In this document: positions 29,393 to 54,993 of the stretch, piece by piece
Position numbering within the stretch: position 1 is the stretch's first letter
How the letters are laid out: every line of letters begins with the position of its first letter
Virus record (IMG/VR): IMGVR_UViG_3300005965_000006
Span: 1-57,303 of that record
Source of the DNA: a virus
Taxonomy: Duplodnaviria > Caudoviricetes
Reading direction: 5' to 3' (one strand)
Length of the DNA stretch: 57,303 bases
Translations under genes and position numbers: made by a program
Notes under the pieces: generated by a model
What the model was told of the DNA's origin: nothing
The model's input: the letters and a program-made list of their open reading frames with translations, nothing else
The model's database searches: none

Positions 29393-31027
29393 ATGACACA
29401 AATAGGTTCAAATGACGTAGATAAAATATTGGCTGGAAGTGCGCCTATAGAAAAATCTTTTAATGGGGATAATCTTATATATAGTAGAGATTGGTTACCT
29501 ACTGATTTATTTTATTTACTTGTTTGGTATGATTTTTTAGATACAGATACTGTGTCTGTTGATGGCTCTAATGGTCTTACAGATATACTAGATAAAAGTG
29601 GTAATGATTATCATGGAAGTCAGAATGATGCTGAAAAAAGACCTGTTTATACTGATAATAATAAAGTTGTTTTCAGCGGTAATGAGTATATAGATATGAA
29701 GCCTACTGTGCCAGGACTTGTTAGGGCCACTTCAGTATTTAATTGTTTTACCTTGTGCCAATTTTCTTCTACAGCAGAAAATCAATATATAGCCGCATTC
29801 AGTATAGCAACAGCTACAGCAGTAAGATTTGGTCTAAGTTCTACAAGCGGAGCATTCAGTACAACAGGAAGAAGACAAGATATTGACGCTTTTACAGCGG
29901 TATCAGGAAGTGCTATAGATACAAATCTACATTTATTCCACGGGCAACATGACCATACTGTAGGTACAGCAACTGTATGGAAAGATGGTGTACAAGATGC
30001 CTATGACCCTGCTTTTAATGGTATAGGAACTACATATAACTCAGACTCTGCTTATGTAGGTTTAGGTAGTTTAAATGAAACTAGTTCTGGTTATTTCTAT
30101 AATGGTAATCTCTATGAAGTAGTTATAGCTAATGCTATGACTAAAAAAGAAAGACAAAAATTAGAAGGTTGGTGCGCTCATTATACAAATAATACGTCAT
30201 TATTAAATGTAAATCATCGTTATAAATCAAATAAACCTAAAAAATATGAGCCTTGTATCCTAGATGATTATGATGATATTTTAGTCGCTGCTGGATTAGA
30301 ACGCATGAGGTCTAATTATAATGGATATTGTATTAGAGTACAACGGGCCTCCGATTCTCAAGAACAAGATATAGGTTTTTCTGGTGATGAGATAGATAGA
30401 GTAGCTCTTGAGACCTTCTGCTCTGGCACTAATGGAGTAATTACTCGTATTTACCTACAGAATATGCCTAGCCTCTATTTTACCCCAGATTCAGACCCAC
30501 CTGTTATAGTAGAGAGTGGTATAATGGTAACAGACCCTGATGGTAATCCTGCAGCTAAAATGGTAGATAAAGCAGTTGATATGGAATATACACCTGGTTT
30601 ACCGGGAGATAGCTATAGTGTTTATGTTGATTACACTGTAATAGATTCTACTGATGATGGTAGAGCTTATACACACGGTTGGAACGGTGGAAATAATAAA
30701 GGTTTCTATATAGGTAATGATGGTTCAGGTAACTTCTCTCAATATTGGGGTGGAACTAGTTATTCAGAGGCTGGAGTAATTTCAGACAATACACGATACC
30801 AAATAGCTGTAGTAGTAGATGGAACACCTTCCTTTAAAACATACAATGAAACAACTAAATGGTTTGACGTGTGGTCAGGAGCTAGAGAATTAAATGATGA
30901 TTGGTTAATGATTGGAACACAGTGGGGCGCTGAAGTACCTAATTGTAATATGTATTTCAGAAAACTAGCTATACTCAATCACGCTATTAATGAAACTGAA
31001 CTAAGTCAATTAACTAGTTTTTCTTAA
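29393..31027 (+). CDS. Receptor-binding/fibre protein with two LamG (concanavalin-like) domains
   Basis: WYD...DKSGNDYH, KLEGW, CIRVQRASDSQEQDIGF. Confidence 0.75.
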   Translation: MTQIGSNDVDKILAGSAPIEKSFNGDNLIYSRDWLPTDLFYLLVWYDFLDTDTVSVDGSNGLTDILDKSGNDYHGSQNDAEKRPVYTDNNKVVFSGNEYIDMKPTVPGLVRATSVFNCFTLCQFSSTAENQYIAAFSIATATAVRFGLSSTSGAFSTTGRRQDIDAFTAVSGSAIDTNLHLFHGQHDHTVGTATVWKDGVQDAYDPAFNGIGTTYNSDSAYVGLGSLNETSSGYFYNGNLYEVVIANAMTKKERQKLEGWCAHYTNNTSLLNVNHRYKSNKPKKYEPCILDDYDDILVAAGLERMRSNYNGYCIRVQRASDSQEQDIGFSGDEIDRVALETFCSGTNGVITRIYLQNMPSLYFTPDSDPPVIVESGIMVTDPDGNPAAKMVDKAVDMEYTPGLPGDSYSVYVDYTVIDSTDDGRAYTHGWNGGNNKGFYIGNDGSGNFSQYWGGTSYSEAGVISDNTRYQIAVVVDGTPSFKTYNETTKWFDVWSGARELNDDWLMIGTQWGAEVPNCNMYFRKLAILNHAINETELSQLTSFS

Positions 31028-38872: not shown

Positions 38873-39232
38873 ATGAATATAAGAGATGTACAAGAACAAG
38901 TAAAACGAGAACTTGAGGATGCTCATTTCAGGCGTCGTGTTGAAATGGAAAAGAAAAGACTATTATCTAAACAAACATTTAAAGGGTTTATAGATAACTT
39001 AATCCCTTTTACACTTATCTCTAAATTAACTATAGACGGTTATAGAGAGATAATAAAACATCAAAGAGATAAAATAAAAGAACTTACTTTTGATAAAGAA
39101 CCTCTTCAACAACGTATCTTAACACTCCAAGAAGAGAACTTTAAATTAAAACATGGTGAAGAGGTTCTTTCTCTCACTGAACAACAAATTATAGATGATA
39201 TGAAGAAGTTGAATCCGAAAGGTTGGGACTAA
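38873..39232 (+). CDS. Hypothetical coiled-coil protein
   Basis: ORF overlapping the next start codon. Confidence 0.6.
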   Translation: MNIRDVQEQVKRELEDAHFRRRVEMEKKRLLSKQTFKGFIDNLIPFTLISKLTIDGYREIIKHQRDKIKELTFDKEPLQQRILTLQEENFKLKHGEEVLSLTEQQIIDDMKKLNPKGWD

Positions 39233-40143
39233 TGAATAGAAAAAATATAAAAGCTGTATTATCTAAAAAGTTTAATGCTTTTGTGGATAGTATAGAAGAT
39301 GAGAAAGTTAAGAAGTTGGTTAAGAAAAATTCCATGATAACGGGAGGGGCAATAGTCTCCATGTTAATGAAGGAGAAGATTAATGACTTCGATATATACT
39401 TTACTAATAAGGAGACAGCTCTTGCTGTAGCTGAATACTATGTTGCTAAGTTCAGAGAAGCACATAAAAATAAGTTCAATGATGTCAATTTAAAAGTTAT
39501 AGATATGACACAAAATGAAAAGAACCCTCAGGAACGTATAAAAATATTCATACGTTCTGATGGAGTAATAGAAGAAGATGATAGCGGAATAACTGATGAA
39601 ACAGAACCAAATGAACCTGACGCTATGGAATATATGTTGGATGACGAAGTAAAGGAGAAAGAGGATGCGCAAGAAAAACCAAAATACAGACCAATCTGGT
39701 TATCTGCCAATGCTATATCCTTATCCGAGAAGGTTCAACTCATCGTTAGATTCTACGGGGACCCTGAGACTATCCACAGTAACTATGATTTTGTGCATTG
39801 CACTAGCTACTGGCTTTCTGGCACCAGCGAGCTTGTCCTTCGTCCAGAAGCATTGGAAGCAATTATTGCCAGGGAACTACGGTATATTGGTTCCAAGTAC
39901 CCAGTCTGTTCACTCATTAGAACAAGAAAGTTTATCAAAAGAGGTTTCACAATCAATGCAGGACAATATCTAAAGATGTGTCTTCAAGTTTCGCAATTAA
40001 ACCTCTTGGACCTGCAAACCTTAGAAGACCAGCTTATAGGTGTTGATTCAGCTTATTTCAATCAGGTAATAAACTACTTTAATGAGAACCCTGATAAATT
40101 AGATGCCTCTTATTTAGTAGAAGTAATTAATAGAATTTTTTAA
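39232..40143 (+). CDS. Pol-beta-superfamily nucleotidyltransferase-like protein
   Basis: ITGGAIVS...NDFDIYF (GG...DxD) and QLI...YDFVH. Confidence 0.7.
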   Translation: MNRKNIKAVLSKKFNAFVDSIEDEKVKKLVKKNSMITGGAIVSMLMKEKINDFDIYFTNKETALAVAEYYVAKFREAHKNKFNDVNLKVIDMTQNEKNPQERIKIFIRSDGVIEEDDSGITDETEPNEPDAMEYMLDDEVKEKEDAQEKPKYRPIWLSANAISLSEKVQLIVRFYGDPETIHSNYDFVHCTSYWLSGTSELVLRPEALEAIIARELRYIGSKYPVCSLIRTRKFIKRGFTINAGQYLKMCLQVSQLNLLDLQTLEDQLIGVDSAYFNQVINYFNENPDKLDASYLVEVINRIF

Positions 40144-40702: not shown

Positions 40703-41677
40703 ATGGAAGAAAAGAAATTCACTGATAATTCAGCTTTAAAGGCAATACTTTATGCTGATGTTATTCAATTTAACAGGGATGTTATTGGAACACCTGTAAG
40801 AATGGATACAGGTTGTTTATCAGAGCCTAGATTAGAATTTGCTAAGAAAGTTTTAACAGAGGAAATAAGTGAGTTTGAGGAGGCTCATACAATGAACGAT
40901 AGCTCTGAGGCTCTAGACGCTATGATAGATTTAATCTACTATGCTTTTGGTAGGCTTTATGAAATGGGTGTTTCAGCTTTAGATTTTGTTAAAGCTTGGG
41001 ATGCTGTGCATGAAGCTAATATGAAGAAAGTCAAAGGAGATAAAGGTAGAGGCTCTGACCAGGATGCTATTAAACCCGAAGGTTGGAAGAAACCTGAAAT
41101 AAAACAGATAGTGGAAACTTATTCTGTTCCTACAGATAATCTTTCAGTAGAACAACAAGCTTATATACGTGGTCTTGAGGAAGAGAATCAAAGACTATTG
41201 CAAGAACAAAATAAACCTGGTGTTAAATTTACACTTGAAAGTTGGACTGAAGCAGTAAATGTAGCAGCTGAAGCTAAGCTTAGGGAGGGTGGTTATACCC
41301 ATCATACAGCAAAGGAAGCTCATGGAACTTGTACAGGAAGATTCTCTCATAAAAAACCTAATATGTCTGATACCTCAGAAGTACTAGATTATCAAAATTA
41401 TTTAGGTGAATTAGATATTGCACAACCTTTTATAGAATGTGCAGAACTCCGTAAAAAGAAGGGTGCCGATTACAGGGGGTCTGATATAGAAATGAAGGAC
41501 TACTTTCCCTTCGGATTATTATCTTACACACAAATGCTCCATACTAAAAACCTCAGGCTCAGGAGCCTTGTGGCAAATGGTAGAACCCCCAAGAATGAAT
41601 CAGTTCGGGATACGCTCCTCGATATGATAAACTATGCTTGTTTTGCAATCGAGGCAATTGACAAAGGAGAAGTGTAA
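40703..41677 (+). CDS. MazG/HisE-like all-alpha NTP pyrophosphatase fused to an Nmad1 (DUF1599)-like domain
   Basis: EEISEF...DAMIDLIY...VHEANMKK...IKPEGW; C-terminal KKGADY...ESVRDTLLDMINY. Confidence 0.8.
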   Translation: MEEKKFTDNSALKAILYADVIQFNRDVIGTPVRMDTGCLSEPRLEFAKKVLTEEISEFEEAHTMNDSSEALDAMIDLIYYAFGRLYEMGVSALDFVKAWDAVHEANMKKVKGDKGRGSDQDAIKPEGWKKPEIKQIVETYSVPTDNLSVEQQAYIRGLEEENQRLLQEQNKPGVKFTLESWTEAVNVAAEAKLREGGYTHHTAKEAHGTCTGRFSHKKPNMSDTSEVLDYQNYLGELDIAQPFIECAELRKKKGADYRGSDIEMKDYFPFGLLSYTQMLHTKNLRLRSLVANGRTPKNESVRDTLLDMINYACFAIEAIDKGEV

Positions 41678-42567
41678 TGCCAACATATCTCAATTCATTT
41701 AATGCACAATACCATCATTTACTTCATAGAGTAATGGAGCATGGAATAGAAGAAGTTAATGAGAGAACAGGAGCAAGAAGTAAAGCTCTTCCTCACATGG
41801 TGCTATCTTCTCCAATACAACGACATATTGAAGTAGTTGGAGCCCGGAGAGTATTTCCTAAATCTGCAGCAGCTGAACTTGCTTGGTGTTTATCAGGAGA
41901 TAAAAATATTGAATGGCTTCAACAGCATACTCCCATGTGGAACCAATTTACTAATGAACATAATGAAATAGATTGTGCTTATGGATGGAGATGGCAAACA
42001 GCTTTCAACCGAGACCAGTTACAAATGGCAATTGATGCTCTCAAGAAAGACACAACAGACAGGCAAATTGTAGTTATGGCATGGGACCCAAGAGTCGATG
42101 GGCTGGGGAATCGTTGGTCAAAGAACGTTCCCTGCCCCATTGGCTTCATGGTTAATATTATTGACAATAAATTAAACCTCACTATGTTGATGAGAAGCTC
42201 CGATGTAGTTGTGGGATTGGTATATGATTCCATTTTTTACGAACTCCTCTTGGTCGCGCTGGCTAATGAACTTGGTGTTGGTTATGGAATGTTTACTGCT
42301 TTTCTTAATCACGCTCATATATATAAAAGTCATTGGGGTATAGCTGAGCAGATGATTAGAAATCTTGATGATTACCTCTGTACTGGAATACCTAAACAAG
42401 ATATGTATATTCCACAAGATTTTCTTATCTCAGGTCTTATAGAAGCCTGGGGTATTACAGAGATTAAAAAGGACCCAGATTCTTATGTGGATTATATTAA
42501 AAGTTTAACTACAAAACCTAAAAGTAGTCCTAAGGCAATGTTAGTAAAACCAGAGGTAATAGAATGA
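41677..42567 (+). CDS. Thymidylate synthase-family methyl/hydroxymethyl transferase (Asp variant)
   Basis: AELAW, AYGWRW, catalytic PC, RSSDVVVGLVYD, HAHIY. Confidence 0.9.
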   Translation: MPTYLNSFNAQYHHLLHRVMEHGIEEVNERTGARSKALPHMVLSSPIQRHIEVVGARRVFPKSAAAELAWCLSGDKNIEWLQQHTPMWNQFTNEHNEIDCAYGWRWQTAFNRDQLQMAIDALKKDTTDRQIVVMAWDPRVDGLGNRWSKNVPCPIGFMVNIIDNKLNLTMLMRSSDVVVGLVYDSIFYELLLVALANELGVGYGMFTAFLNHAHIYKSHWGIAEQMIRNLDDYLCTGIPKQDMYIPQDFLISGLIEAWGITEIKKDPDSYVDYIKSLTTKPKSSPKAMLVKPEVIE

Positions 42568-43124
42568 AAAGAAAAGAGATTGAGTTAATACGTACTTTCC
42601 CCGATAAAATAGCTAAAGAAGTCTATTATATGAATTTAGCAATTGCAGTGTCCAAGAGGTCGACTTGTTTAGATAAGCAAGTTGGCGCTGTCCTAGTAGA
42701 CAACTACGGTAAAATTATAAGTTCAGGTTTTAACGGGGCTCCTTCTGGTTTTATTCATTGTACTGATACTAATCACTGTCATAAAGATAACGGTGATGCC
42801 TGTATAGCAGTACACGCTGAAGCTAATGCTATAGCCCAAGCAGGACGAGAGGCTACAGGTTGCACCTTATATGTAACACATTCTCCTTGTCTTGAATGTA
42901 CAAAGTTGATACTTAATGCTAAGATACTTCAAGTAGTAGCTTTAGAAATGTATTCAAAACATAAGAAGTATCCTAAATTATGTCCTGATATGCTATTTAA
43001 TGATACAAAGACAAATTTACTTTACCTTAAACCTATGTTAAACAATACACCAAAACAACCTTGTTTTAGGGACCCAATACAAGAATGTACTGGTTGCTAT
43101 GAACGTTGTTACGAAGACAGCTAG
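42564..43124 (+). CDS. dCMP deaminase family protein
   Basis: RSTC..QVGA, GFNGAPSG, HAEANA, PCLEC. Confidence 0.92.
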   Translation: MKRKEIELIRTFPDKIAKEVYYMNLAIAVSKRSTCLDKQVGAVLVDNYGKIISSGFNGAPSGFIHCTDTNHCHKDNGDACIAVHAEANAIAQAGREATGCTLYVTHSPCLECTKLILNAKILQVVALEMYSKHKKYPKLCPDMLFNDTKTNLLYLKPMLNNTPKQPCFRDPIQECTGCYERCYEDS

Positions 43125-43206
43125 TTAACGGCTATAAGTTAATATATAACTATATATTTTAGAAGCAAAAAATTCGACTGTATAAACTTCAACTGGAGCC
43201 TATTTT

Positions 43207-43479
43207 ATGTATTATAGTTTTTATTTAAACGATAAACAAGAACTCTTTAAAATAAAGCCTTTAGGACAAAATTTTGAAATGGCTATTTATAGATTTAGAG
43301 AAGATGTAAAAGCTTTTAAAGGATTATTCCCAGTAGAAAGTGATTCAAAGTTTAGAACAGTATTTCCTACATTTGAAATGAGATTCATAAACACTAAGAA
43401 TAAAGGAGCAACAAAAGGCCATAAACCTAAGAAATCAATAGAAAGAGAATATATGAGGATAAGTGCATTATATGACTAA
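43207..43479 (+). CDS. Hypothetical protein
   Basis: GGAG RBS. Confidence 0.5.
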   Translation: MYYSFYLNDKQELFKIKPLGQNFEMAIYRFREDVKAFKGLFPVESDSKFRTVFPTFEMRFINTKNKGATKGHKPKKSIEREYMRISALYD

Positions 43480-43645
43480 TCAATTAATACTATCAAATAG
43501 TACAGATAAATGGGTAACTTTTGCTGTATTCTATGAGGAAGGTTATAGACCAAATAATACACCACTTATTATAGAAGTACCTCCTCACATACAACCAAAA
43601 GTTAATGGACCAGTAATAGAAGTGAGGATATTAAAAAATGAGTAA
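43472..43645 (+). CDS. Small hypothetical protein
   Basis: Overlaps neighbours at both ends. Confidence 0.45.
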   Translation: MTNQLILSNSTDKWVTFAVFYEEGYRPNNTPLIIEVPPHIQPKVNGPVIEVRILKNE

Positions 43646-43897
43646 TTGGAATGAGATATTACTAATACCCCAAATAGAAAAAAGATAGCAATACTTCAAG
43701 AAGCAAAATTTAAACCAGTTTTGTTACTTATACCTGATGCCACTATGGCACGGCTTAGAAGAGAAATAGAAAATGTTGCTGGTTTTAGAGGCTTAGAGGA
43801 AGTAGAAGAGTTCAAGGGCCTTCGGGTTAAAGTACTTAATGAGTATGCTCTTGAAAAGAAAACTACAGAGTTCACCTTCTGGATAGGAGTAGACTAA
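43638..43897 (+). pseudogene. ~86-aa gene interrupted by a one-base frameshift near the A6 run at 43678-43683
   Basis: ATG 43638 with GAGG RBS stops at 43686; the -1 frame is open to TAA 43895-43897, which overlaps the next ATG. Confidence 0.5.
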
Positions 43898-44169
43898 TGA
43901 GAGACTACACTAAGTATGTAGGAAAATTTTCTCATGCTATGATAGAGACACTTATAACTAATGAGAAATATAGAAATAAACGTGGATGGGAAAATCTTTC
44001 TAATGAGCATATACTCAAAAGAATAAAAGAGGAAACAGCCGAAATAGAGACGGCACTAATAAATCAAGCTCCGACACGTGATATAATAAAAGAGTGCACA
44101 GACGTTGCAAACTTTTGCATGATGTTAGCTGATAACCTGGAGAGACGAGATGAAGGAGATAAGAAATGA
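43897..44169 (+). CDS. Small MazG-like protein
   Basis: EETAEI...ECTDVANFCMM. Confidence 0.7.
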   Translation: MRDYTKYVGKFSHAMIETLITNEKYRNKRGWENLSNEHILKRIKEETAEIETALINQAPTRDIIKECTDVANFCMMLADNLERRDEGDKK

Positions 44170-44645
44170 AATTCATGTGCGCAGTCAGTCCAGAGGGCTA
44201 CATGGCCCAGGGACCGGAGGACGATATGGTATGGACTCCCCAAATAGACAAACAAATTTTTCAGATTGTGTCAGCCCTGGACGGAGGAATCTGTCTGGTG
44301 TCAAAACAGACACTTTCGAATATGCCAAGGTTCCTGACCGGAAGGACTCTAATTCCAATATCAAGCAACGGGTTAACTTTGGAGCAAGCCTACGAAAAGT
44401 TTCCAAACGCCTTATTAGTTTCGGGGCCAACATTGCTAAAGGATGCCAACCGCTTATCAGATTATGACACACCAATAATACAGGACCTAATAATTAACCA
44501 GGTCGATATACAACTTCTTGGACAAGATATTCCTGAAGAGTATCGTTTTCCTTTTGATATTCTAACAAATTACCATAAAGTAATTGAAGTACAATTCCAG
44601 GATATGAAAACTACTATATATAGACATAGCTTAAGGAGTGAATAA
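44166..44645 (+). CDS. Divergent dihydrofolate reductase-like protein
   Basis: CAVSPEGYMA..DDMVW...DK..F, LVSKQT, LTGR, LVSGP match DHFR segment order. Confidence 0.7.
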   Translation: MKFMCAVSPEGYMAQGPEDDMVWTPQIDKQIFQIVSALDGGICLVSKQTLSNMPRFLTGRTLIPISSNGLTLEQAYEKFPNALLVSGPTLLKDANRLSDYDTPIIQDLIINQVDIQLLGQDIPEEYRFPFDILTNYHKVIEVQFQDMKTTIYRHSLRSE

Positions 44646-44891: not shown

Positions 44892-46961
44892 ATGAAAAAA
44901 GATGATAGCTGGCGAGTGAAGGAAACTATTAAATTTGAGGACCTTCACAGTGATTGGGAATACCCAACAGAATTTCCCGAACTTAGTAAGGCAGATATAA
45001 TATCAATAGATACAGAGACTTGTGACCCGGGTCTTTCTGAGTTTGGACCAGGGTGGACTAGGGGAGAAGGAAATGTAGCTGGTATATCTATTGCTGCTCG
45101 TTTTGGTACAGAAGTATTTTCAGGGTATTATCCTATAGGTCATGGTGTTCATGGGCGAGATGGTAATATGGACCGAGCAATGGTAACTGATTGGCTAAGG
45201 AGAGAATTAAAAAGTAATACCCATAAAGTATATGCCAATGCTAATTATGATATGGGTTGGCTTTCTACTGAGAATATAGAAACAGTGGACTATGGTAGAA
45301 CAGAAGATATTCAGATAATGGCTCCCTTGATTAATGAACACATGTGGAGCTATTCTCTTGATACTCTTGGTAAATATTACCTTAAAGAATCTAAAGATGA
45401 GGCCTTGCTTAATTTGGCTATAGGTAAATATGGTTTAAAGCATCCTAAGAAAGAAATGTGGAAACTTCATCCTAAGTTTGTAGGACCTTATGCAGAGCAA
45501 GATGCTATTCTTACTTTGAAGCTATATGAGCACTTTAACCCACTTATAGATAAAGACCCTGTAAGTGGCCAATCGTTAAGACAGGTTTATGACCTTGAAA
45601 CTAAGTTAATTCCAATTCTCTTTAAAATGCAAAGACGTGGTATAAGAGTTGATGTTGGTAGAGCTGAAAAAGTAAAAGAAGAATTTCAAAAGCAAATAGC
45701 AGAGAGACAAAAGTGGTTAAATACTAAGGCTGGTTTTGAGATAAATGTTAACTCTGGAGATGATTTAGGTAGAGCTTGTGATGATTTAGGAATAGAGTAT
45801 CCGAGAACAGCTAAGACTAATAAACCATCTTTCACTAAAGACTTTATTGAATTTCATGATGCTGAGTTCCTCCGAGAGGTCCGTAAAGTTAGACAAATGA
45901 TGAAAGCTCAATCAACCTTTATTGAAAGTGCTATATTAAATAAAGTACATAATGGAAGAGTTCACCCACAATTCCACCAGTTACGTAGAAGTGATGACCA
46001 GAATGATGCTCTTAAAGGGACTATATCAGGTAGATTCTCTTGTACTACACCTAATATTCAACAAGTTAGCTCAAGAGATGAGGTTGTGGCTCCTCTTATA
46101 CGTCAGATATTCCTTCCTGAGGAAGATACGTTATGGGGTTCTTTTGACTATAGTTCTCAGGAGCCTAGGCACACGGTTCATAAAGCAGCTCAGCTATATA
46201 GAGCAGGCGTTACTACCTATTGGTTAGACCATTTAGCTAAATCTGAGGACGCTGTAAGGAAATATCACGAGGATCCAAAGACCGATTACCACCAGATGGT
46301 TGCAGACCTTTGTGGAATATCTCGTAAAGAAGCTAAGACTATCAACCTCGGTATTGCTTATGGAATGGGTGGAGCAAAGCTCTGTAAGTCCTTGGGCCTT
46401 CCAACTGAGATGCGAAGGATGTTTGGGAAGATGATTGAAATGGCCGGTCCCGAAGGGCAAGAGATTCTTGATAAGTATCACGCTGGGGCAGCATATATTA
46501 AAGGTCTTTCAAAGTTCTGTGAAAAATTTGCTAAGGATAACGGTTATATAAGAACCGAGCTTGGTAGACACGCTAGATTCAATGATTGGACTTCCACAGA
46601 CTTTGATACAGCACGAAAGACTAAACCTGAACCATTTGAAACTATGAGAGCCTATACCCGCGACCCTGAGAACCCTCTTTATGGTCATAGTATAGAAAGA
46701 GCAAAAACCTATGTAGCAATGAACAGGGTAGTCCAGGGTTCATCTGCAGACCAAACAAAATTAGCTATGCTTCAATGTTATGAAGCAGGTTATCTACCTT
46801 TAGCTCAAGTGCATGATGAACTCGCTATTCCAATATCTATTGTTAATAAAGAACAACAAGGCCAAGAGGTTAAAGAAATTATGGAAAACTGTATGCCTTT
46901 AATTGTACCTTCTCTAGTAGATTACGGCTTAGGTAGAACTTGGGGAGATGCTAAAGGATAA
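44892..46961 (+). CDS. polA: Family A DNA polymerase with 3'-5' exonuclease
   Basis: DTET exonuclease motif, YAEQD, SGRFS..PNIQQ, DYSSQE, RKEAKTINLGIAYG, QVHDE. Confidence 0.95.
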   Translation: MKKDDSWRVKETIKFEDLHSDWEYPTEFPELSKADIISIDTETCDPGLSEFGPGWTRGEGNVAGISIAARFGTEVFSGYYPIGHGVHGRDGNMDRAMVTDWLRRELKSNTHKVYANANYDMGWLSTENIETVDYGRTEDIQIMAPLINEHMWSYSLDTLGKYYLKESKDEALLNLAIGKYGLKHPKKEMWKLHPKFVGPYAEQDAILTLKLYEHFNPLIDKDPVSGQSLRQVYDLETKLIPILFKMQRRGIRVDVGRAEKVKEEFQKQIAERQKWLNTKAGFEINVNSGDDLGRACDDLGIEYPRTAKTNKPSFTKDFIEFHDAEFLREVRKVRQMMKAQSTFIESAILNKVHNGRVHPQFHQLRRSDDQNDALKGTISGRFSCTTPNIQQVSSRDEVVAPLIRQIFLPEEDTLWGSFDYSSQEPRHTVHKAAQLYRAGVTTYWLDHLAKSEDAVRKYHEDPKTDYHQMVADLCGISRKEAKTINLGIAYGMGGAKLCKSLGLPTEMRRMFGKMIEMAGPEGQEILDKYHAGAAYIKGLSKFCEKFAKDNGYIRTELGRHARFNDWTSTDFDTARKTKPEPFETMRAYTRDPENPLYGHSIERAKTYVAMNRVVQGSSADQTKLAMLQCYEAGYLPLAQVHDELAIPISIVNKEQQGQEVKEIMENCMPLIVPSLVDYGLGRTWGDAKG

Positions 46962-48068: not shown

Positions 48069-48104
48069 AGTAAGCTCGATTTAAAGTTTAAAATCGAGCT
48101 TACT
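48069..48104. terminator. Bidirectional terminator between the convergent genome arms
   Basis: Perfect 14-bp stem AGTAAGCTCGATTT/AAATCGAGCTTACT. Confidence 0.85.
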
Positions 48105-48129
48105 GTTTTATTCTATTTGCTATCTATTT

Positions 48130-48654
48130 TTAATTATTTTCGAACATTTGTTCATAATTATTCTGGTCTACTACTTCCATGCCCAAGTTAGTTAGAAAAG
48201 CAACCGCGGTAGGTACTGAATAAATAGATTCTTGGGCAATCTGTCTATCCCCACCGTCGCGGATAAGAGCTTTGCGCGCATAGGTTATCAGCTTCTTAGC
48301 TGATAATACTTCAATCTCACCATCCGGGTCAATAACTTCATAAGAGAGTTCAGAGGCATATCTTCTTGCTGCTCGCGGTTTCGCAGGCTCTAGGATTCCT
48401 TCTTCTCTCATTTTATGTCTATACCATTGAATTGCTTTAACAGAAGTTGCTCCTCCAAACTTAGCTACTACCATCGCGGCAATCTCTTTATCATTGGCCT
48501 GAAGGTCCCCATCAGCATGCTTTTTAATAAGAGAGCGAGCATAAGTAGCAACATCTCCTCGTTTATATGAGTTTTTAATACCAGTTTTCATATATTCGTT
48601 AACTGTTCCTTTAAAAGCATTTTCTTTGGTTTTAGTGCTAGTTCTTTTTTGCAT
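48130..48654 (-). CDS. Putative HTH-like DNA-binding protein, 'IxWY[KR]' paralog 2
   Basis: DKEIAAMVVAKFGGATSVKAIQWYRHKMR. Confidence 0.7.
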   Translation of the reverse strand: MQKRTSTKTKENAFKGTVNEYMKTGIKNSYKRGDVATYARSLIKKHADGDLQANDKEIAAMVVAKFGGATSVKAIQWYRHKMREEGILEPAKPRAARRYASELSYEVIDPDGEIEVLSAKKLITYARKALIRDGGDRQIAQESIYSVPTAVAFLTNLGMEVVDQNNYEQMFENN

Positions 48655-49285
48655 CTTTATTCTCCTCGCATATATCTCTTAATGGACATTTTTTACAATC
48701 ACCTCTCTTGGACCCGCAGATTAAAGACCCAAAGTCCAAGAGGTGGTAGTTAAATTCCACATAGTTCTCATTGGGTAGTAATTTATTTAGGATATATTCA
48801 ACTTCAGTCTTACCCTCAATACCAAAAACCCTCCTAACAAATTTCTTTGTATTGGTATCATATATAATACGTCTCTCTTTATGGAAGAAGCAAGCTACGG
48901 CATTTGCACAATAGTCTCCACAACCAGGAAGGAATATTAAATCATTAAAGCCTATTGGGAGTGTTTGGTTTAAAAATGTTTCAGCTGCTTTCTTGAGAAC
49001 TGAGGCTCTATTGTGTTCAAGACCTAAAGAGAATAAATCTTTAGCTAATTCAGCTTCAGTAGTAGCATAAATATCCCAGAAGTTTTCATACTTAGCTAAA
49101 AAGAAATCTAATACATTTTCAACAGCTTCAGCTTTAGTCCGTGAAAGCAATATCTCCGCAATCAATATCCGCCAAAAAGTTGAGTTGGGCTGGCGCCAAG
49201 AGAAGAGCCGGAAGTTCTTCTGGCCCCATGATTTTAATCTCTTCCTCACTTCCTTTATCCTCTGTTGTTCCTGCTGTATATTCAT
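48638..49285 (-). CDS. HhH-GPD DNA glycosylase with 4Fe-4S motif (Mig/MutY-like)
   Basis: ILIAEILLSRT, LPGCGDY, DTN, Cx6Cx2Cx5C; AGGAGG RBS before ATG 49285. Confidence 0.9.
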   Translation of the reverse strand: MNIQQEQQRIKEVRKRLKSWGQKNFRLFSWRQPNSTFWRILIAEILLSRTKAEAVENVLDFFLAKYENFWDIYATTEAELAKDLFSLGLEHNRASVLKKAAETFLNQTLPIGFNDLIFLPGCGDYCANAVACFFHKERRIIYDTNTKKFVRRVFGIEGKTEVEYILNKLLPNENYVEFNYHLLDFGSLICGSKRGDCKKCPLRDICEENKDAKKN

Positions 49286-49508
49286 TATCTTCCTCCTTTG
49301 GAGCGTGCTCCTTTTTAAGTACACCTACTTCAATAAGTTTTTCTTCAAGACATTTACTACATAAGTTCCAACCATTAAAACACCCAAACTTCCAGTCTAA
49401 TCTACTACACTTCCAGCAACGTGCAAAGAAGAGTGGTCCACTATAAGGAACTTGTTCTAATTGAAAAGCTTGTAAACCATATACCGTAATTGGAAACTGT
49501 GCGGGCAT
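49134..49508 (-). CDS. Cys-rich hypothetical protein
   Basis: CWKC, CSKC; upstream TTTACG-17-TATAAT promoter; 3' end overlaps the glycosylase. Confidence 0.55.
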   Translation of the reverse strand: MPAQFPITVYGLQAFQLEQVPYSGPLFFARCWKCSRLDWKFGCFNGWNLCSKCLEEKLIEVGVLKKEHAPKEEDNEYTAGTTEDKGSEEEIKIMGPEELPALLLAPAQLNFLADIDCGDIAFTD

Positions 49509-49639
49509 AATTATCCTCTCGTTTAATTATCTATATATCTATTATAATATAAAAGTATCTGCTCGTAAATCAGTATAAAAAATCCTAGCCGGTTGACTAG
49601 GATTATTATTTTGGGAGGAGATTTGGGGGTTGTTTGTAA

Positions 49640-50155
49640 TTACTCCCCGAAAGGAGCAACTTCAGGTTGTTGTCCTTCTGCAACTGGTGCTTCAGGAGCT
49701 GTTTCAGCTTCAGCTTTTTTACCTTTACCTTTTTTAGCTTTAGGTTCTTTAGGCTCTTTAGGAGCTTTCTCAGGAGCTTTAGGAAGTAAATCTTCAGGAA
49801 TATATACTTTAAGGTCTTCAACAGGAATTTTCTGAATAAAGCTGTCAAAGTACTTTTGAACTAATTCAAGAACAACTTCAACTCTTTTCTCATCTGTCAT
49901 ACCATTAAGTGCTTCTCTGAATGCTGAATGAATCTCTGCTTTTTTAACTGACGTAGTTCTAGGACGTCCAGTAAGCTGCGGGTCTTGGTATCTGTACCAT
50001 CTTATACAGTTAATTTTTCCAGCGCCTTCACCGAACACTTCATCAAGTTTAGCTGCAATTTCCTGATCAGTTAAACCATCTCTAATACCTTGCCTTGTAA
50101 TCTCGGCGATGGTTGGTTTTTTAAACTTTTCCTTGTTTTCCTTTTGTTCTGCCAT
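49640..50155 (-). CDS. Putative HTH-like DNA-binding protein, 'IxWY[KR]' paralog 3, with K/A/P/E-rich tail
   Basis: LTDQEIAAKL...NCIRWYR; AAGGAG RBS; downstream hairpin at ~49581-49605. Confidence 0.75.
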   Translation of the reverse strand: MAEQKENKEKFKKPTIAEITRQGIRDGLTDQEIAAKLDEVFGEGAGKINCIRWYRYQDPQLTGRPRTTSVKKAEIHSAFREALNGMTDEKRVEVVLELVQKYFDSFIQKIPVEDLKVYIPEDLLPKAPEKAPKEPKEPKAKKGKGKKAEAETAPEAPVAEGQQPEVAPFGE

Positions 50156-50361
50156 GTGCTTCTCCTTTTGGCTTCTCTTACTTAACACGAATCATTGAAC
50201 TGATTTCTATAATTATAATATCTTAAAAAGATAAAATGTACATAGGTATATAGAACGAGATTTTATCTAGCTATTCACAACTTTTTGAGCCACACCTTGG
50301 ACACTGTGCACAATAAGTTGGTTTCTCGTCAAGAAACTGGGAACTCCAATTTCTTGTTTTA

Positions 50362-50670
50362 TCAGACATACCATTCCTTTTCCAAATAATGATAATAACT
50401 ATCGCCCGCCACGAACACGTTATTAAATACCCTTATGACCTCCTGCTCGGCGAGCTTATTAGTAGCAGGGTCGAATATATATTGTTTTAAAAAGAATACC
50501 CAATTATATCTCTTCCAAATATCTGACTCTTCGGGCCGGAAGCCCAGGACCCCGAGTATAAAATGAATAGCATTCTGGTCTCCCATTATCCTAAATAAAA
50601 TTTCGAGGTCCTTGACTTTAGCCGGTTTGCCCTTAGGCCAGACTAGTGCTTGTCTATTAATTACTTGCAC
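50362..50670 (-). CDS. Hypothetical protein
   Basis: ORF whose start overlaps the upstream stop. Confidence 0.55.
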   Translation of the reverse strand: MQVINRQALVWPKGKPAKVKDLEILFRIMGDQNAIHFILGVLGFRPEESDIWKRYNWVFFLKQYIFDPATNKLAEQEVIRVFNNVFVAGDSYYHYLEKEWYV

Positions 50671-51056
50671 TAGTTACCTACCATACCTTTTACTGATGCG
50701 TCCATAGTAGGAACGCCCGCTTCTCTATAGATTTCTTCAACTTTAGCCTTAGCTTCAGTGGCCATCTCATTAAAGCGTTCCTCGGTTATTTGCTCTCTAG
50801 TTATGCGCTCACTTTTCATAAGAGCATCAGTAATATTTACAAGCAGAAGAGCAGGAGGTATTTCCATCTTATCTGCCAATGTCTGAATAATTGCTGCTAC
50901 CATAAACATGTGGACCTGGGGATGCCCTTTCATGCTTACAGCGATACCTTTGTTGGGGATTTGTTGAATGTTGATATGGGCGGACCCATTACATACATTA
51001 CAGTTACTGCAATCATCGCAGTTTTGTTCCATGTTCTGTTCATTTTTGTTTTCCAT
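50670..51056 (-). CDS. Hypothetical protein
   Basis: GAGGAG RBS before MENKNEQ. Confidence 0.6.
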   Translation of the reverse strand: MENKNEQNMEQNCDDCSNCNVCNGSAHINIQQIPNKGIAVSMKGHPQVHMFMVAAIIQTLADKMEIPPALLLVNITDALMKSERITREQITEERFNEMATEAKAKVEEIYREAGVPTMDASVKGMVGN

Positions 51057-51069
51057 AAGGTGTCTCCTC

Positions 51070-51393
51070 TTAATTATTCTCTGGTCGCTCTGGACACGGT
51101 GGAATATTCCGTACCACATTTCTAATATACTTGTCCAAGAAGTCAGACCCCTTGGACTCGAAGCCTGATTCAATTTTCTGTATCTCATCAGGTGCACCTT
51201 GAAGCAAATCCTCAAGAAATGCTTTAGGTGATATTTTTCTTTTCATGGACAGCGTTACTATAATCATTTGTAAGAGTGTCATGAGATTGTCATTAGTACC
51301 ATCTGTATTTATTTGTACTTGGTCATTTGGAAACATTCTAGCGCATAATTCAGCAATCATCTTCTTCTTCCTTTTGTTCGCTGAATAAAGCAT
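51070..51393 (-). CDS. Hypothetical protein
   Basis: ORF in the early-gene string; start uncertain. Confidence 0.55.
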   Translation of the reverse strand: MLYSANKRKKKMIAELCARMFPNDQVQINTDGTNDNLMTLLQMIIVTLSMKRKISPKAFLEDLLQGAPDEIQKIESGFESKGSDFLDKYIRNVVRNIPPCPERPENN

Positions 51394-51715
51394 CTATTTG
51401 TTCTTTTTTCATATCTGTCTTATCGTCTACTAAACAGAAGCAATAATCATTCTGCCATTGAACATTGTGGCATTTATAGTGACCAAGCATTTCCTCTTCA
51501 ACATTCAGATAACCATACTCAGACTCGAATAAGGTTAAATCCTCACTAGTAACAGTAATTACCTTACCATCAATCATCTGAATGATGTCACACTCGCCGG
51601 CTCCAGGAATCTTTTGAGCCAGTCTAATTGTGCCTATATTCGAGGGTTTGAATGCAGGGTATACCTTCTTCAAGTGGCTTATCTTTACCGTAAACATATA
51701 TCGCTCTCCTTTCAT
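51350..51715 (-). CDS. Hypothetical protein
   Basis: AAGGAG RBS before an internal ATG (MFTVK). Confidence 0.55.
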   Translation of the reverse strand: MKGERYMFTVKISHLKKVYPAFKPSNIGTIRLAQKIPGAGECDIIQMIDGKVITVTSEDLTLFESEYGYLNVEEEMLGHYKCHNVQWQNDYCFCLVDDKTDMKKEQIDALFSEQKEEEDDC

Positions 51716-51857
51716 ATTTCAACTCTTTTACTGGTTCTTGCTCTGGTTGTAAATAATAATATAACCATGTACCTGTCGTATATAATCCTACACAGAACAT
51801 TAAAAATACCCAAGCAATTGTGCAACCTATTAATGCTGATAAAATTTTAGTATCCAT
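51624..51857 (-). CDS. Small membrane protein
   Basis: N-terminal transmembrane segment; AAGGAG RBS. Confidence 0.55.
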   Translation of the reverse strand: MDTKILSALIGCTIAWVFLMFCVGLYTTGTWLYYYLQPEQEPVKELKYERRAIYVYGKDKPLEEGIPCIQTLEYRHN

Positions 51858-52047
51858 GTTGACTCTCCTTTACTGTATCTATCACTACTTTGGCTATCAT
51901 ACTTAATTGGAATGCTTCGTTTAAATCTATAGCCTCTGGTAATTCTCCATCATATAATTCTATTTCTATCATTTTCAAGAGATGACTAGTATTTGTTATA
52001 TTTGTCATATTAACCAATGTATCGGGAGCTTCAATTTTATCCGTCAT
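51847..52047 (-). CDS. Small hypothetical protein (MTDKIEAP...)
   Basis: 3' half of track ORF 51847..52203 with a plausible RBS. Confidence 0.45.
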   Translation of the reverse strand: MTDKIEAPDTLVNMTNITNTSHLLKMIEIELYDGELPEAIDLNEAFQLSMIAKVVIDTVKESQHGY

Positions 52048-52339
52048 AGTGCGCTCGCTTTCTACATTTACTAGAGCCAAGAAAACTACAGGCAACGTAA
52101 TTATCAGTAATAGCAAACCTACCTGGGTCAAAAGTTCCACGAGGTTCATGTAAAAGCCAATTAGGGACATTCGACGTGTACTCCACATTATTAATTCCAG
52201 CATCCATCAATATTTGCTTCCTATTTATACAGTATTCAAACTCGGGACAAGACCAACATTTACCTACATCTAATTCTTTGTGTGGGCATCTATATTCTTT
52301 CTTAAAATCCATGTTGATATATTTAGTGTAATCCTTCAT
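52037..52339 (-). CDS. Cys-rich hypothetical protein
   Basis: CPH..CWSC..C; GAGAGG RBS. Confidence 0.5.
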   Translation of the reverse strand: MKDYTKYINMDFKKEYRCPHKELDVGKCWSCPEFEYCINRKQILMDAGINNVEYTSNVPNWLLHEPRGTFDPGRFAITDNYVACSFLGSSKCRKRAHYDG

Positions 52340-52419
52340 CCTCTCACCCTTTCATTCAGCTATCAGGTTAATCCTAGGACCGAGGATATTGTAGTCCCCG
52401 GTCCCTAGGAACCTTAGAG

Positions 52420-52980
52420 TTATTTAGCTTTAGCGCTCTTTCCTCCTTTAGTAAGCGGGGCAACTTCGGCTGGCTCTTCATTTTTCTTGGGCTCAGTTTC
52501 TTTTGCTTTACCTTTGTTCCGTCTAGCAGCAGCCACTTGTGCCTCCGAAGGTTTCTTTTCAGGTTTATCTTCTACAGGAATGTATTGCTCAAGGTCTTCT
52601 ACATCAGCTGCCTTAACTAAGTCAATTATATTTTTCTTAGCTAAGTCTATTAGAATTTGTTCTCTCTCATCGGGTGCAAGAGTCTGGAGATGAGCAGCAA
52701 ATGTTGACCTGAGTTCCTCGTGATTGCCTTTCTTTTTCATGTCCTGTTTGTACCAAGCAATTGAACTTCCTGTTGTTTTAGCTTGTTGCCCGAATAGATG
52801 TTTAACATAAACAACTACATCAGCTATTTGGTCGTGAGTCAATTCATCGCACCAAGGTTTGTTAACTATTAGGTGTGTAGCTATAGACCTGACTGTTGAT
52901 TGTGGAGTAAAGTTGTCTTTAATTTGTTCCGCTACTACTTTGGGGTCCCACTTTTCTTGGGGGTTTTGGTTGTTTGTCAT
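52420..52980 (-). CDS. Putative HTH-like DNA-binding protein, 'IxWY[KR]' paralog 4, with K/A/E-rich tail
   Basis: LTHDQIADVV...TTGSSIAWYKQDMK; AAGGAG RBS; TTCGCA-17-TATTAT promoter upstream. Confidence 0.75.
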   Translation of the reverse strand: MTNNQNPQEKWDPKVVAEQIKDNFTPQSTVRSIATHLIVNKPWCDELTHDQIADVVVYVKHLFGQQAKTTGSSIAWYKQDMKKKGNHEELRSTFAAHLQTLAPDEREQILIDLAKKNIIDLVKAADVEDLEQYIPVEDKPEKKPSEAQVAAARRNKGKAKETEPKKNEEPAEVAPLTKGGKSAKAK

Positions 52981-53095
52981 GATAGTTCTCCTTCTGTTCT
53001 GTTCTAATACGCTCTGTTCGTTAAATTGTTTTTTAACCATTAAAAATATAATATCAAATAAAATGTGTTTTGCGAATATGCTTTGTTCTTCTAAC

Positions 53096-53314
53096 CTATA
53101 TTAGTTCGATAACTACTTCCTCCTTTCCTTCTGTTATCTTGAGAGATTGAGTTGTAACTAACTCTGTACTAGCAACACTTGGATTAGTGAATCCAAATAT
53201 AAGGTTCTTATTCTCAAGCTGGTCCCTCTTCATAATCGCATATAATTGACTTACAAACTCATCCACGGTCGCTACTTCAACTACTTGCTGGTTTTTGATT
53301 GTGTTGTTTGTCAT
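53096..53314 (-). CDS. Hypothetical protein
   Basis: AAAGGAG RBS. Confidence 0.6.
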   Translation of the reverse strand: MTNNTIKNQQVVEVATVDEFVSQLYAIMKRDQLENKNLIFGFTNPSVASTELVTTQSLKITEGKEEVVIELI

Positions 53315-53433
53315 AGTGATTCTCCTTTTCTATTATATATACTCGGTCCTTAGGTAGAGGGCTCAACGGTGAATCCTCTAAGAAAAGACCTGAGTGAAAG
53401 CGTGGTAAACGCTCAGGTCAATGAAGGCCTCAA

Positions 53434-53739
53434 TTAACCGCATTCATTCTCTTCTTCCGCGACTTTAAACATATAAGCAGCTTGACCACCAGGAATATCT
53501 TCTATTTTTACTTTCCATTTTTGACCACAATTTTTACATATCTCAATGGCTTCATGTTGATTACCAGCACAATCACTAGTACTGAAATGTAATGAATAAT
53601 CAAAGGTATTCTCATCAAAATAAAGCGGTTCAGGTGCACATGGGCAATAAGCACTAATACTAGTTATACCTTTAGCGTGGTAATGTTTTTTCCCATTAAT
53701 CTTTTCTCCTTTTCTTCTTCCTTTTACTTTCACTTTCAC
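53434..53739 (-). CDS. Hypothetical protein with CxxC
   Basis: ORF track; CKNC. Confidence 0.5.
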   Translation of the reverse strand: MKVKVKGRRKGEKINGKKHYHAKGITSISAYCPCAPEPLYFDENTFDYSLHFSTSDCAGNQHEAIEICKNCGQKWKVKIEDIPGGQAAYMFKVAEEENECG

Positions 53740-53745
53740 TTTCTT

Positions 53746-54078
53746 TTACTTAACAAATGCAGGACTTTCAAAAATCTCTTCCAAGAAGTTTATTTGTGCT
53801 ATTCTCTTCGCTATCTCGTATTGCACATACTCCATATAGACTGGATTAATTGAGTCTATAGTTATCTCTATCTGGTATCCATCACTACAGAATGGCTCAT
53901 AGTCATAGATAACATAACTATTATACTTGCTTCGCCATTCCATCTTAAGTATGATACAATTATTTTCTAATATCAGAGCTTTTATCCATTCACGAAGCTC
54001 TTGTGTACAAGGTCCGCTATCATGTATTATTATCATATTAGCTGGTTTATCTGGTGCCTTAGGTACTTGTAGTTTCAT
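53746..54078 (-). CDS. Hypothetical protein
   Basis: AGGAG RBS. Confidence 0.6.
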   Translation of the reverse strand: MKLQVPKAPDKPANMIIIHDSGPCTQELREWIKALILENNCIILKMEWRSKYNSYVIYDYEPFCSDGYQIEITIDSINPVYMEYVQYEIAKRIAQINFLEEIFESPAFVK

Positions 54079-54241
54079 TAATCAACTCCTGTCTTTTCTT
54101 AAACTTCTCGCACTTTATTATGTACTCTTTAGTGTAAGATGAGGAAGTCCAATCATGCAGTTGAGCACTCCAATTAGTCATCTTTCTGTATCGAGTACAA
54201 GACTTCTTGGACTTACAGTTCCAGTTACTGCATAGTATCAT
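54059..54241 (-). CDS. Small Cys-rich protein (MILCSNWNC...)
   Basis: AAGGGAG RBS before ATG 54241. Confidence 0.55.
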   Translation of the reverse strand: MILCSNWNCKSKKSCTRYRKMTNWSAQLHDWTSSSYTKEYIIKCEKFKKRQELINETTST

Positions 54242-54386
54242 TGATTCAACTCCCTTACAAATATAGTTAGTATCAATATCCCCGGTCCCGCTACTACAGG
54301 ATGTATCCATCCATTATGGATACAAAATCCTGTAGCAAAGACCAGTGTCACGCATATAAGATTAAACAACCCTCTACCCCAACGAC

Positions 54387-54662
54387 TCATCCGCATTCAT
54401 GCTTACCCTCAACACAAGCACTATCAAGAGAAAGACAGTGCTCTAGAAATACTTCCATCTTAATATTCTTAGGTCTTATCATAATAGGTTCAGACATTAA
54501 ACCTTCTTTGCGATATCTAGCATAACCCTTTTGAAGCATATCCTTAGCTTCTTTCATGGTCAAATGCTTTCTGTCCGCCAACATCTTTACAGTATTATCT
54601 TCATCATTAGGCCTATCTAAGAAGCTATATACTTCAGCTTCCATAATATCGAATTTATCCAT
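54387..54662 (-). CDS. Hypothetical protein
   Basis: GAGGAG RBS; upstream TTCACC-17-TAATAT promoter. Confidence 0.55.
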   Translation of the reverse strand: MDKFDIMEAEVYSFLDRPNDEDNTVKMLADRKHLTMKEAKDMLQKGYARYRKEGLMSEPIMIRPKNIKMEVFLEHCLSLDSACVEGKHECG

Positions 54663-54741
54663 AGTGTTTCTCCTCAACAATTTTCATTCATACATACATA
54701 CATATTAACATAAAATGTTCAGCTGGTGAATAAGATTAGTT

Positions 54742-54993
54742 TCATCTTTCCTTATTAGGTTCGACTGCAAATAGGACCTGAGAATGTTCACCATCATCGC
54801 CATTATTGCATTCTATATAGTGTACATTCTCAAATGACCCCAAAAAATTACATACATCTTGAATAATATCTGCTGCACAGTCATCATCATCTAACCTGTC
54901 ATAGGTTGTTACAGTGACAGAGAGACCGTCGGTCAGGGAGTCCCCGAATTTTTGCATAAACTCTTGGCCTAGTGTTTGAAATTGTATCTGCAT
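54742..54993 (-). CDS. Acidic hypothetical protein
   Basis: AAGGAGG RBS before MQIQF. Confidence 0.6.
   Translation of the reverse strand: MQIQFQTLGQEFMQKFGDSLTDGLSVTVTTYDRLDDDDCAADIIQDVCNFLGSFENVHYIECNNGDDGEHSQVLFAVEPNKER

Follow-up and report, generated by a model that had tools for sequence, protein, structure and literature searches.

Complete replacement of cytosine by 5-methylcytosine (5mC) is described for the Xanthomonas phage Xp12 (10.1101/2024.12.05.627091; PMC8670742). Its ThyA homolog, as well as five of seven tested deaminase-linked homologs of the Asp type (i.e., with aspartate in place of Escherichia coli ThyA Asn177), is reported to have given 5-methyldeoxycytidine (5mdC) in vivo (10.1101/2024.12.05.627091). 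Biochemical knowledge of the pathway dates from ~1980, and genomic knowledge from 2020–2024. A related set of genes is found in the virus record IMGVR_UViG_3300005965_000006, the entire 57,303 bases of which, rated 100% complete, constitute the window analyzed here. Positions 40703–44645, directly upstream of the gene for DNA polymerase A, are occupied by a row of partly overlapping plus-strand genes that encode, in order, a MazG-Nmad1 fusion, a ThyA homolog, a deaminase of the deoxycytidine monophosphate (dCMP) family, three small orphan open reading frames (ORFs), a small MazG, and a divergent dihydrofolate reductase (DHFR). With a probability of about 0.7, this row represents an Xp12-type cassette for pre-replicative methylation of cytosine, located on an HTVC023P-like podovirus backbone between helicase and polymerase.

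The determinants of substrate and product in this enzyme family have been described in part. Positions 177 and 147 (E. coli numbering) are reported to be the discriminating ones (PMC8670742), and an Asn-to-Asp exchange at position 177 shifts the preference from deoxyuridine monophosphate (dUMP) to dCMP (PMC8670742, PMC13326640). The substitutions L143D/E are typical of T4-like 5-hydroxymethyl-dCMP (5hmdCMP) synthases, while D169N marks the 5-hydroxy-dCMP synthases (PMC13326640). The 27 C-terminal residues with which thymidylate synthase (TS) covers its folate site are described as missing from T4 CH, and DHFR as not being required for hydroxymethylation (PMC5175136). A survey based on a coastal seawater metavirome (10.1101/2024.12.05.627091; MetaGPA, PMC8670742) places 104 of 149 deaminase genes of predicted cytosine-modified contigs, versus 17 of 277 of unmodified ones, at most 3 kb from a thymidylate synthase gene, the top co-localized domains being Thymidylat_synt, MafB19-deam, PRA-PH, DNA_pol_A, and DNA_pol_A_exo1 (10.1101/2024.12.05.627091). 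For the deaminase mSCD-B5, a preference for 5mC at the triphosphate level is reported, and such enzymes are proposed to make deoxythymidine triphosphate (dTTP) from 5-methyl-deoxycytidine triphosphate (5-methyl-dCTP) (10.1101/2024.12.05.627091).

The 296-residue product of the second gene is a member of the Pfam family Thymidylat_synt (PF00303; 152.9 bits against a cut-off of 24.3, E = 1.2e-44). Its AlphaFold2 (AF2) model has a predicted local distance difference test (pLDDT) score of 94.6, and the top Foldseek matches are thymidylate synthases (E ~1e-18). It is the only ThyA homolog of the whole record, in which no ThyX was found. The original prediction for this DNA, made by a model from the letters alone, had placed an aspartate where E. 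coli ThyA has Asn177, and the alignments confirm it. The motif RSSDVVVGLVYD is present in the enzyme. In each of the five printed PDB alignments, its final residue, Asp184, stands opposite the Asn that canonical thymidylate synthases have, and it corresponds to Asn177 in a MAFFT alignment that includes Xp12, Tedan, and T4 gp42. Aspartate occupies this position in 70 of 70 database homologs and in 76 of 80 related viral loci; its occurrence is therefore not due to chance. The 80 loci were retrieved with the 70-sequence alignment of ThyA homologs, a query with the single protein having retrieved none.

The other active-site equivalents are Cys153 (C146), Asp176 (D169), Pro154 (H147), and Asn150 (L143). 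At all of these positions, at Asp184, and in the tail PEVIE, the states of the window enzyme are identical to those of Xp12. The Asp169 column is invariant in the 70 homologs. PEVIE forms the conserved end, common to Xp12, of a C-terminal region of ~70 residues, and a terminal P-[ED]-[VI]-[IV]-x-like motif is seen by eye in most of the 70 homologs, as well as in Xp12 and Tedan. The enzyme is predicted to be a dCMP methyltransferase, converting dCMP and methylene-tetrahydrofolate (CH2-THF) to 5-methyl-dCMP and dihydrofolate (DHF).

The position equivalent to L143 bears on the nature of the product. Because one MAFFT run shifted this column, with a five-residue insertion nearby, it was read at a fixed offset, three residues ahead of the catalytic Cys. 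Asn stands there in the window, in Xp12, in Tedan, and in 70 of the 80 loci, compared with Asp in T4 gp42 and Leu in E. coli. T4 gp42-type hydroxymethylases combine an acidic residue at this position with the absence of a TS-type C-terminal segment, and the window enzyme shows neither feature. The Asn that replaces Asp169 in the 5-hydroxy-dCMP synthases of the RB69 gp48 type is likewise missing, Asp176 being kept. A dCMP hydroxymethylase like T4 gp42, yielding DNA with 5-hydroxymethylcytosine (5hmC) or a derivative and leaving DHFR and deaminase to serve general folate and deoxythymidine monophosphate (dTMP) metabolism, is thus an unlikely reading of the locus. It draws on the Asp that T4 gp42 also has at the N177 position, on the prediction that Asp-type synthases beside deaminases give "5hmdC or 5mdC", and on the report that the mSCD enzymes were first detected through activity on 5hmdC (10.1101/2024.12.05.627091). 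Nevertheless, the L143-equivalent Asn is as in Xp12 and is neither Asp nor Glu, the conserved C-terminal tail of the window enzyme has no counterpart in T4 gp42, Pfam and PHROG scans revealed no glycosyl- or carbamoyl-transferase for 5hmC, and the closest characterized relative is the Xp12 methylase. In addition, hydroxymethylation releases tetrahydrofolate (THF), so that DHFR would be unneeded, whereas in the window DHFR accompanies the only ThyA homolog; this arrangement therefore fits reductive methylation.

The assignment of the 159-residue protein as DHFR is based on PHROG 13578 ("dihydrofolate reductase", 2e-20) and on a profile built from this protein and 43 homologs from the related loci. 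Searched against the PDB, the profile gave 117 matches at E ≤ 0.01 (best 4.3e-9), and every one among the 60 matches listed is a DHFR chain. W23 and D28, invariant in the 44 homologs, align with the conserved Trp and active-site Asp of solved DHFR, which we take to be residues 22 and 27 of the E. coli enzyme. The protein shares 36% identity with its Xp12 counterpart, which itself passes Pfam DHFR_1. Its predicted role is to restore THF from the DHF that reductive methylation gives off.

The neighborhoods of the related loci were compared by tblastn with the window proteins (E ≤ 1e-4, within 6 kb). In 62 of the 80 loci, the ThyA homolog is directly preceded by a MazG homolog; a deaminase homolog adjoins the ThyA homolog in 59, and a DHFR homolog is present in 48. 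The signature Asn(-3)/Cys-Pro/Asp177 occurs in 69 loci; within this group, MazG homologs were found in 59, deaminase homologs in 56, and DHFR homologs in 47. In four loci, Asp177 is combined with His or Tyr at position 147, and the homologs of MazG, deaminase, and DHFR are all absent. They are all absent, too, from the four loci with Asn177, which have an acidic residue at the L143 position. This last group bears on the possibility of an ordinary thymidylate supply, in which dUMP formed from dCMP would be methylated, folate recycled, and the DNA left unmodified. Related phage records do annotate the genes as a dTMP pathway, and dCMP deaminase, thymidylate synthase, and DHFR together make up the standard one. 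Such a supply is nonetheless very unlikely for the window: the loci that keep Asn177 lack all three neighbor genes, the dUMP-selecting Asn is replaced by Asp throughout the 70 homologs and His147 by Pro, and N177D is the exchange reported to switch the preference to dCMP (PMC8670742, PMC13326640).

In a ThyA tree from a quick maximum-likelihood search, the window belongs to a nine-row clade with a Shimodaira–Hasegawa-like approximate likelihood ratio test (SH-aLRT) support of 96. This clade is sister to a 63-row clade (support 93) that contains Xp12 and Tedan. The join of the two (72 rows) has a support of 83, with E. coli ThyA and T4 gp42 placed outside.

The deaminase encoded next to the ThyA homolog matches dCMP_cyt_deam_1 (PF00383; 76.7 bits, E = 1.5e-21) and conserves the HAE and PCxxC catalytic motifs. 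Its relatives in the PDB are the Streptococcus mutans dCMP deaminase (2.2e-20), T4 Cd (1.5e-16), and the PBCV-1 dCMP/dCTP deaminase (9.4e-13). Identity to the Xp12 deaminase is 24% in a MAFFT alignment and 30% over the tblastn segment. Tyr136 stands opposite Trp128 of the XP-12 enzyme and, in a HMMER alignment, Tyr130 opposite Tyr153 of the T4 enzyme, two residues described as aromatic contacts of the methyl group (PMC12088426). The same source, citing work from 1982, states that the XP-12 deaminase acts specifically on 5m-dCTP to give dTTP, and that ordinary dCMP deaminases also accept 5-methyl-dCMP (PMC12088426). A supply of deoxythymidine (dT) by deamination is therefore plausible with either type of enzyme, and the window protein is predicted to turn 5-methyl-deoxycytidine (5-methyl-dC) nucleotides into dT nucleotides. 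A C-terminal extension of ~45 residues (42990–43124, plus strand), which ends in a Cys-rich C..C..C..C pattern, is absent from 14 aligned homologs.

The original prediction had set out two alternatives for the 5-methyl-dCMP formed: incorporation of 5mC into the phage DNA, or use of the adjacent deaminase as a reversed route to dTMP. As alternatives, these do not hold, given that Xp12 and the phage of mSCD-B5 are described as running both together; both are probably true in the window as well. From the first, the joining of a dCMP-methylating ThyA homolog, DHFR, deaminase, and MazG into a 5-methyl-dC pathway is supported by the comparison with Xp12. From the second, the formation of dT via the deaminase is retained, although in those two systems the reported conversion is of 5-methyl-dCTP to dTTP and not of 5-methyl-dCMP. 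Deamination alone, with 5-methyl-dCMP serving only as an intermediate to dTMP/dTTP and with ordinary cytosine in virion DNA, is quite unlikely. It would suit a window deaminase that is closest to ordinary dCMP deaminases, for which activity on 5-methyl-dCMP is reported (PMC12088426), and the failure to find a nucleotide kinase for 5-methyl-dCMP. However, two MazG-type pyrophosphohydrolases fit a clearing of competing dCTP, and the pairing of an Asp-type synthase with a deaminase is reported to be enriched on C5-modified contigs (10.1101/2024.12.05.627091). As to the kinase, none is recognizable by Pfam, PHROG, and kinase-like profile searches, in agreement with the earlier reading of the sequence. 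Its absence had been taken to favor the deamination route or use of a host kinase; it does not favor that route, because Xp12, with the same genes, is also without a recognizable kinase and yet has its cytosine fully replaced by 5mC.

The first protein of the row, of 324 residues, matches PRA-PH/MazG (PF01503; 39.4 bits against a cut-off of 21.3, E = 8.3e-10) and DUF1599, which is Nmad1 (PF07659; 30.9 bits against a cut-off of 25, E = 3.4e-7, residues 273–316). It is divided into a MazG/PRA-PH domain (~1–140), a lineage-specific linker (~140–235), and the Nmad1/DUF1599 domain (~236–324). The best solved relative of the MazG domain is the MazG-like NTP pyrophosphohydrolase DR2231 (7e-8), and the acidic metal-binding motif residues E53, E54, E57, D72, and D76 are kept without exception across 38 homologs. 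The fusion protein is predicted to hydrolyze dCTP and/or deoxyuridine triphosphate (dUTP) to the monophosphate, a reaction that would supply the methylase with substrate and prevent C and U from entering phage DNA. The 90-residue MazG-like protein scores 20.4 bits with PRA-PH, just below the cut-off of 21.3, and matches AF_0060 in the PDB (2P06, 8e-5); EETAE and E..D motifs are visible in its translation, and tblastn found no homolog of it in the 80 related loci. In the Xp12 record (L001, MT664984.1), the gene at 5159–5932 is annotated as "hydrolase (HAD superfamily)". Its product matches PRA-PH/MazG (6.6e-15) and the Nmad1 profile (3.5e-41), as well as the MazG and Nmad1 parts of the window protein; the HAD label therefore looks wrong.

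Among the relatives, the C-terminal partner of MazG is Nmad1, a P-loop kinase-like domain, or dGTP_diPhyd_N, the last being the form of the three nearest relatives of the window. Profile searches within 6 kb in the 80 loci found the Nmad1 type in 30, the kinase type in 27, both in 0, and neither in 23. The kinase-like domain is identified by a Walker-A-like motif, GRHGKDT, a sub-threshold match to Pfam DNMK, and a match to dephospho-CoA kinase (2.2e-4), and it may be the 5-methyl-dCMP kinase of the phages that carry it. Its fusion to MazG, with the GRHGKDT motif, is seen, for example, in loci L009–L013, L015, L018, L019, and L028 and in Tedan (L002) at 5033–5992. The kinase-like profile (A5) matches Tedan at 1.6e-65 and has no match in the whole window or the whole Xp12 record. 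Searches with Pfam DNMK, Thymidylate_kin, and AAA_18 produced no genuine match in the window, Xp12, or Tedan, the sole AAA_18 match in the window being the P-loop of the helicase; these models are insensitive, since the kinase-like domain of Tedan escapes them too.

The Nmad1 domain, for which 22 homologous domains were aligned, is predicted to be a small helical bundle (pLDDT 85.3). A profile search of the PDB returned only a His-tag artifact, with AF_0060 at E = 0.84, and Foldseek returned nothing at E ≤ 0.001. The best VIA-align Z score was 6.8 (AF_0060), and several MazG, PRA-PH, and RS21-C6 chains reached Z ~6, within the background of helical bundles. Comparison by hhalign with the MazG domain of the same protein paired the D..D helix only, at a probability of 3%, and that with the small MazG gave 0.9%. 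Because the fold scores lie within background, the notion of Nmad1 as a second MazG-like domain stays a lead. A literature search on Nmad1 yielded no title or abstract opening about DNA-modification domains. Replacement of the kinase-like domain by Nmad1, which would pass 5-methyl-dCMP towards the triphosphate or be an obligatory partner in this step, is a rather improbable function. It would agree with the occurrence of one form or the other, but never both, in the 57 related loci of these two types, with the presence of Nmad1 in Xp12 and the window, whose records have no kinase-like domain, and with the kinase-like form in Tedan. The structural matches that come closest, though weak, are MazG-type pyrophosphohydrolases rather than kinases, and dGTP_diPhyd_N is carried at the same position by the nearest relatives.

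On the basis of homology and synteny, the substrates, products, and virion DNA composition of the putative Xp12-type cassette may be envisaged as follows. MazG-type pyrophosphohydrolases would turn dCTP, and probably dUTP, into monophosphates, depleting the canonical triphosphate and supplying the methylase. The Asp-type ThyA homolog would then methylate dCMP with CH2-THF, giving 5-methyl-dCMP and DHF, which DHFR would recycle to THF. A host or phage kinase would raise 5-methyl-dCMP to the triphosphate, and the phage polymerase would incorporate 5-methyl-dCTP, such that virion DNA would contain 5mC for C. The adjoining deaminase would turn part of the 5-methyl-dC nucleotide pool into dT nucleotides, a route that would explain why a dUMP-methylating synthase is not needed.

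Several points weigh against this interpretation. The record is from an uncultured virus, so that its virion DNA composition is inferred. The window ThyA homolog shares only 35% identity with that of Xp12, its clade is sister to that of Xp12 rather than nested within it, with modest support for their joining, and only three rows of the tree have known function. The Asp-type signature is not fully predictive, because two of the seven tested homologs are reported to have given no 5mdC (10.1101/2024.12.05.627091). The deaminase, at 24% identity to that of Xp12, reaches higher scores with ordinary dCMP deaminases, and the 5mC preference of such deaminases is described as "sporadically distributed" (10.1101/2024.12.05.627091). 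The DHFR taken alone has no Pfam DHFR_1 match at E ≤ 0.01. Finally, the window contains no recognizable nucleotide kinase, though the search for one was insensitive.

The positions of the genes are given in Table 1. Stop and start codons overlap by 1 nucleotide between MazG-Nmad1 and ThyA, by 4 between ThyA and the deaminase, and by 4 between the small MazG and DHFR; these three overlapping junctions suggest co-expression. The three small ORFs have no Pfam or PHROG match and no tblastn match in the 80 related loci.

Table 1. Coordinates of the cassette, DNA polymerase, and DNA glycosylase genes in the window.
Feature	Positions	Strand	Basis or location
MazG-Nmad1 fusion, 324 aa	40703..41677	+	Pfam PRA-PH + DUF1599
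ThyA-family enzyme, 296 aa	41677..42567	+	Pfam PF00303
Zn-dependent dCMP-family deaminase, 186 aa	42564..43124	+	Pfam dCMP_cyt_deam_1
Three small ORFs, 90, 60, and 58 aa	43207..43897	+	between deaminase and small MazG
Second, small MazG-like protein, 90 aa	43897..44169	+	PRA-PH borderline
Divergent dihydrofolate reductase, 159 aa	44166..44645	+	PHROG 13578
Family A DNA polymerase with 3'-5' exonuclease	44892..46961	+	Pfam DNA_pol_A, DNA_pol_A_exo1
HhH-GPD DNA glycosylase with iron-sulfur loop, 228 aa	48638..49324	-	Pfam HhH-GPD

Just upstream of the cassette, a 306-residue protein (39223–40143, plus strand) matches PHROG 4400 (function not assigned; 8.5e-64). It contains a GGAI...DFDIYF stretch that, by eye, recalls nucleotidyltransferases of the Pol-beta type, and it has no homolog in the 80 related loci.

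The backbone of the virus is that of a podovirus. The structural genes are podovirus-like, the portal protein being closest to those of pelagiphages (34% identity), and megablast against cultured phages found no near-identical DNA. The DNA polymerase (Pfam DNA_pol_A, 4.8e-46) has its best cultured relative in Pelagibacter phage HTVC023P (40.1% identity). The replication modules of HTVC023P and the window agree in gene order, running from two conserved proteins through primase, helicase, and DNA polymerase A to endonuclease. In HTVC023P, only two small ORFs lie between helicase and polymerase, in contrast to ~6.5 kb including the cassette in the window, and no ThyA homolog was found anywhere in its 60,878 bases. 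The nearest uncultured relatives (L006–L008) have the cassette at the same place as the window. The cassette thus behaves as an accessory module.

Elsewhere on this backbone, the large terminase (811 residues; 3874–6309, plus strand) contains an apparent intein with a LAGLIDADG homing endonuclease at residues ~250–580, as judged from LAGLIDADG_3 (3.8e-13), sub-threshold Intein_splicing and Hint_2 matches, and terminase matches on both sides. Two tail-region proteins (25871–28021 and 29393–31027, plus strand) have GH39/GH5-like and arabinofuranosidase-like domains and are probably receptor-degrading fibers or spikes. In the region ~48100–57303, the coding strand turns to minus, and the sign of the GC skew flips from ~48 kb; among the ORFs scanned in this part, the DNA glycosylase is the only one with a family match.

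This glycosylase (HhH-GPD, 1.6e-11) is of the Mig/EndoIII/MutY type and has the loop of an iron-sulfur cluster. The PDB entry that it matches best is 1KEA, a "possible G-T mismatches repair enzyme" (9.7e-27), and the glycosylase is a possible accessory that would repair T:G mismatches arising from deamination of 5mC. In 15 of the 80 loci, a homolog immediately precedes the MazG gene, and a 16th locus (L060) has one at another place within the 6-kb flank. HhH-GPD is absent from four of the five other complete records checked, namely HTVC023P, Tedan, and the two complete nearest cassette-bearing relatives. It was rejected as a constant part of the system on account of its absence from these two relatives and from Tedan. 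A literature search found no paper joining a bacteriophage HhH-GPD protein with 5-methylcytosine and thymidylate synthase.

The pathway is already known, and the window is a divergent member of it on a different phage backbone; no new question is opened. Full replacement of C by 5mC shields phage DNA from many restriction enzymes, and such phages have supplied useful enzymes, including 5mC-selective deaminases for methylation sequencing. The window offers divergent versions of these enzymes (24–43% identity to Xp12) for biochemical study. Two leads arise. One is that the fusion partner of MazG is exchanged between Nmad1, kinase-like, and dGTP_diPhyd_N domains; the other is the Mig-like T:G glycosylase, which would suit a genome made wholly of deamination-prone 5mC.

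Among the described systems, T4 gp42 has in common with the window enzyme the ThyA fold, the catalytic Cys, the equivalents of Glu58, Tyr94, Arg166, and Asp169, and the Asp at the N177 position. It differs in having Asp at L143 and Thr at H147, in having no C-terminal tail, and in forming a very long branch outside the group; its identity of 24% in alignment A1 refers to E. coli ThyA, not to the window enzyme. Loci of the mSCD-B5 type resemble the window in their gene neighborhood: the dCMP_cyt_deam_1 deaminase is next to a synthase of the Asp177 type, and both PRA-PH and DNA_pol_A/DNA_pol_A_exo1 are found nearby.

Xp12 is the closest counterpart. The best matches of the window ThyA homolog among cultured phages, Xp12 included, show 34–39% identity. 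Xp12 is a member of the Mesyanzhinovviridae with a Xanthomonas host, whereas the window combines podovirus-type structural genes with an HTVC023P-like replication module. Within the cassette, the window differs by the additional small MazG, the three orphan ORFs, and the linker of ~95 residues in MazG-Nmad1. Both phages encode an HhH-GPD protein, that of Xp12 (160 residues) from a gene directly before the cassette, ahead of MazG, and that of the window at full length from the other strand, 4 kb away. The genes for MazG (with an Nmad1-like part in Xp12), the ThyA homolog, the deaminase, and DHFR follow one another in the same order and orientation in both, with identities of 24–43% (MazG N-terminal domain, 43%; DHFR, 36%; ThyA homolog, 35%; deaminase, 24–30%), and the record thus presents an Xp12-type cassette as a movable module on an unrelated, marine-type podovirus backbone.

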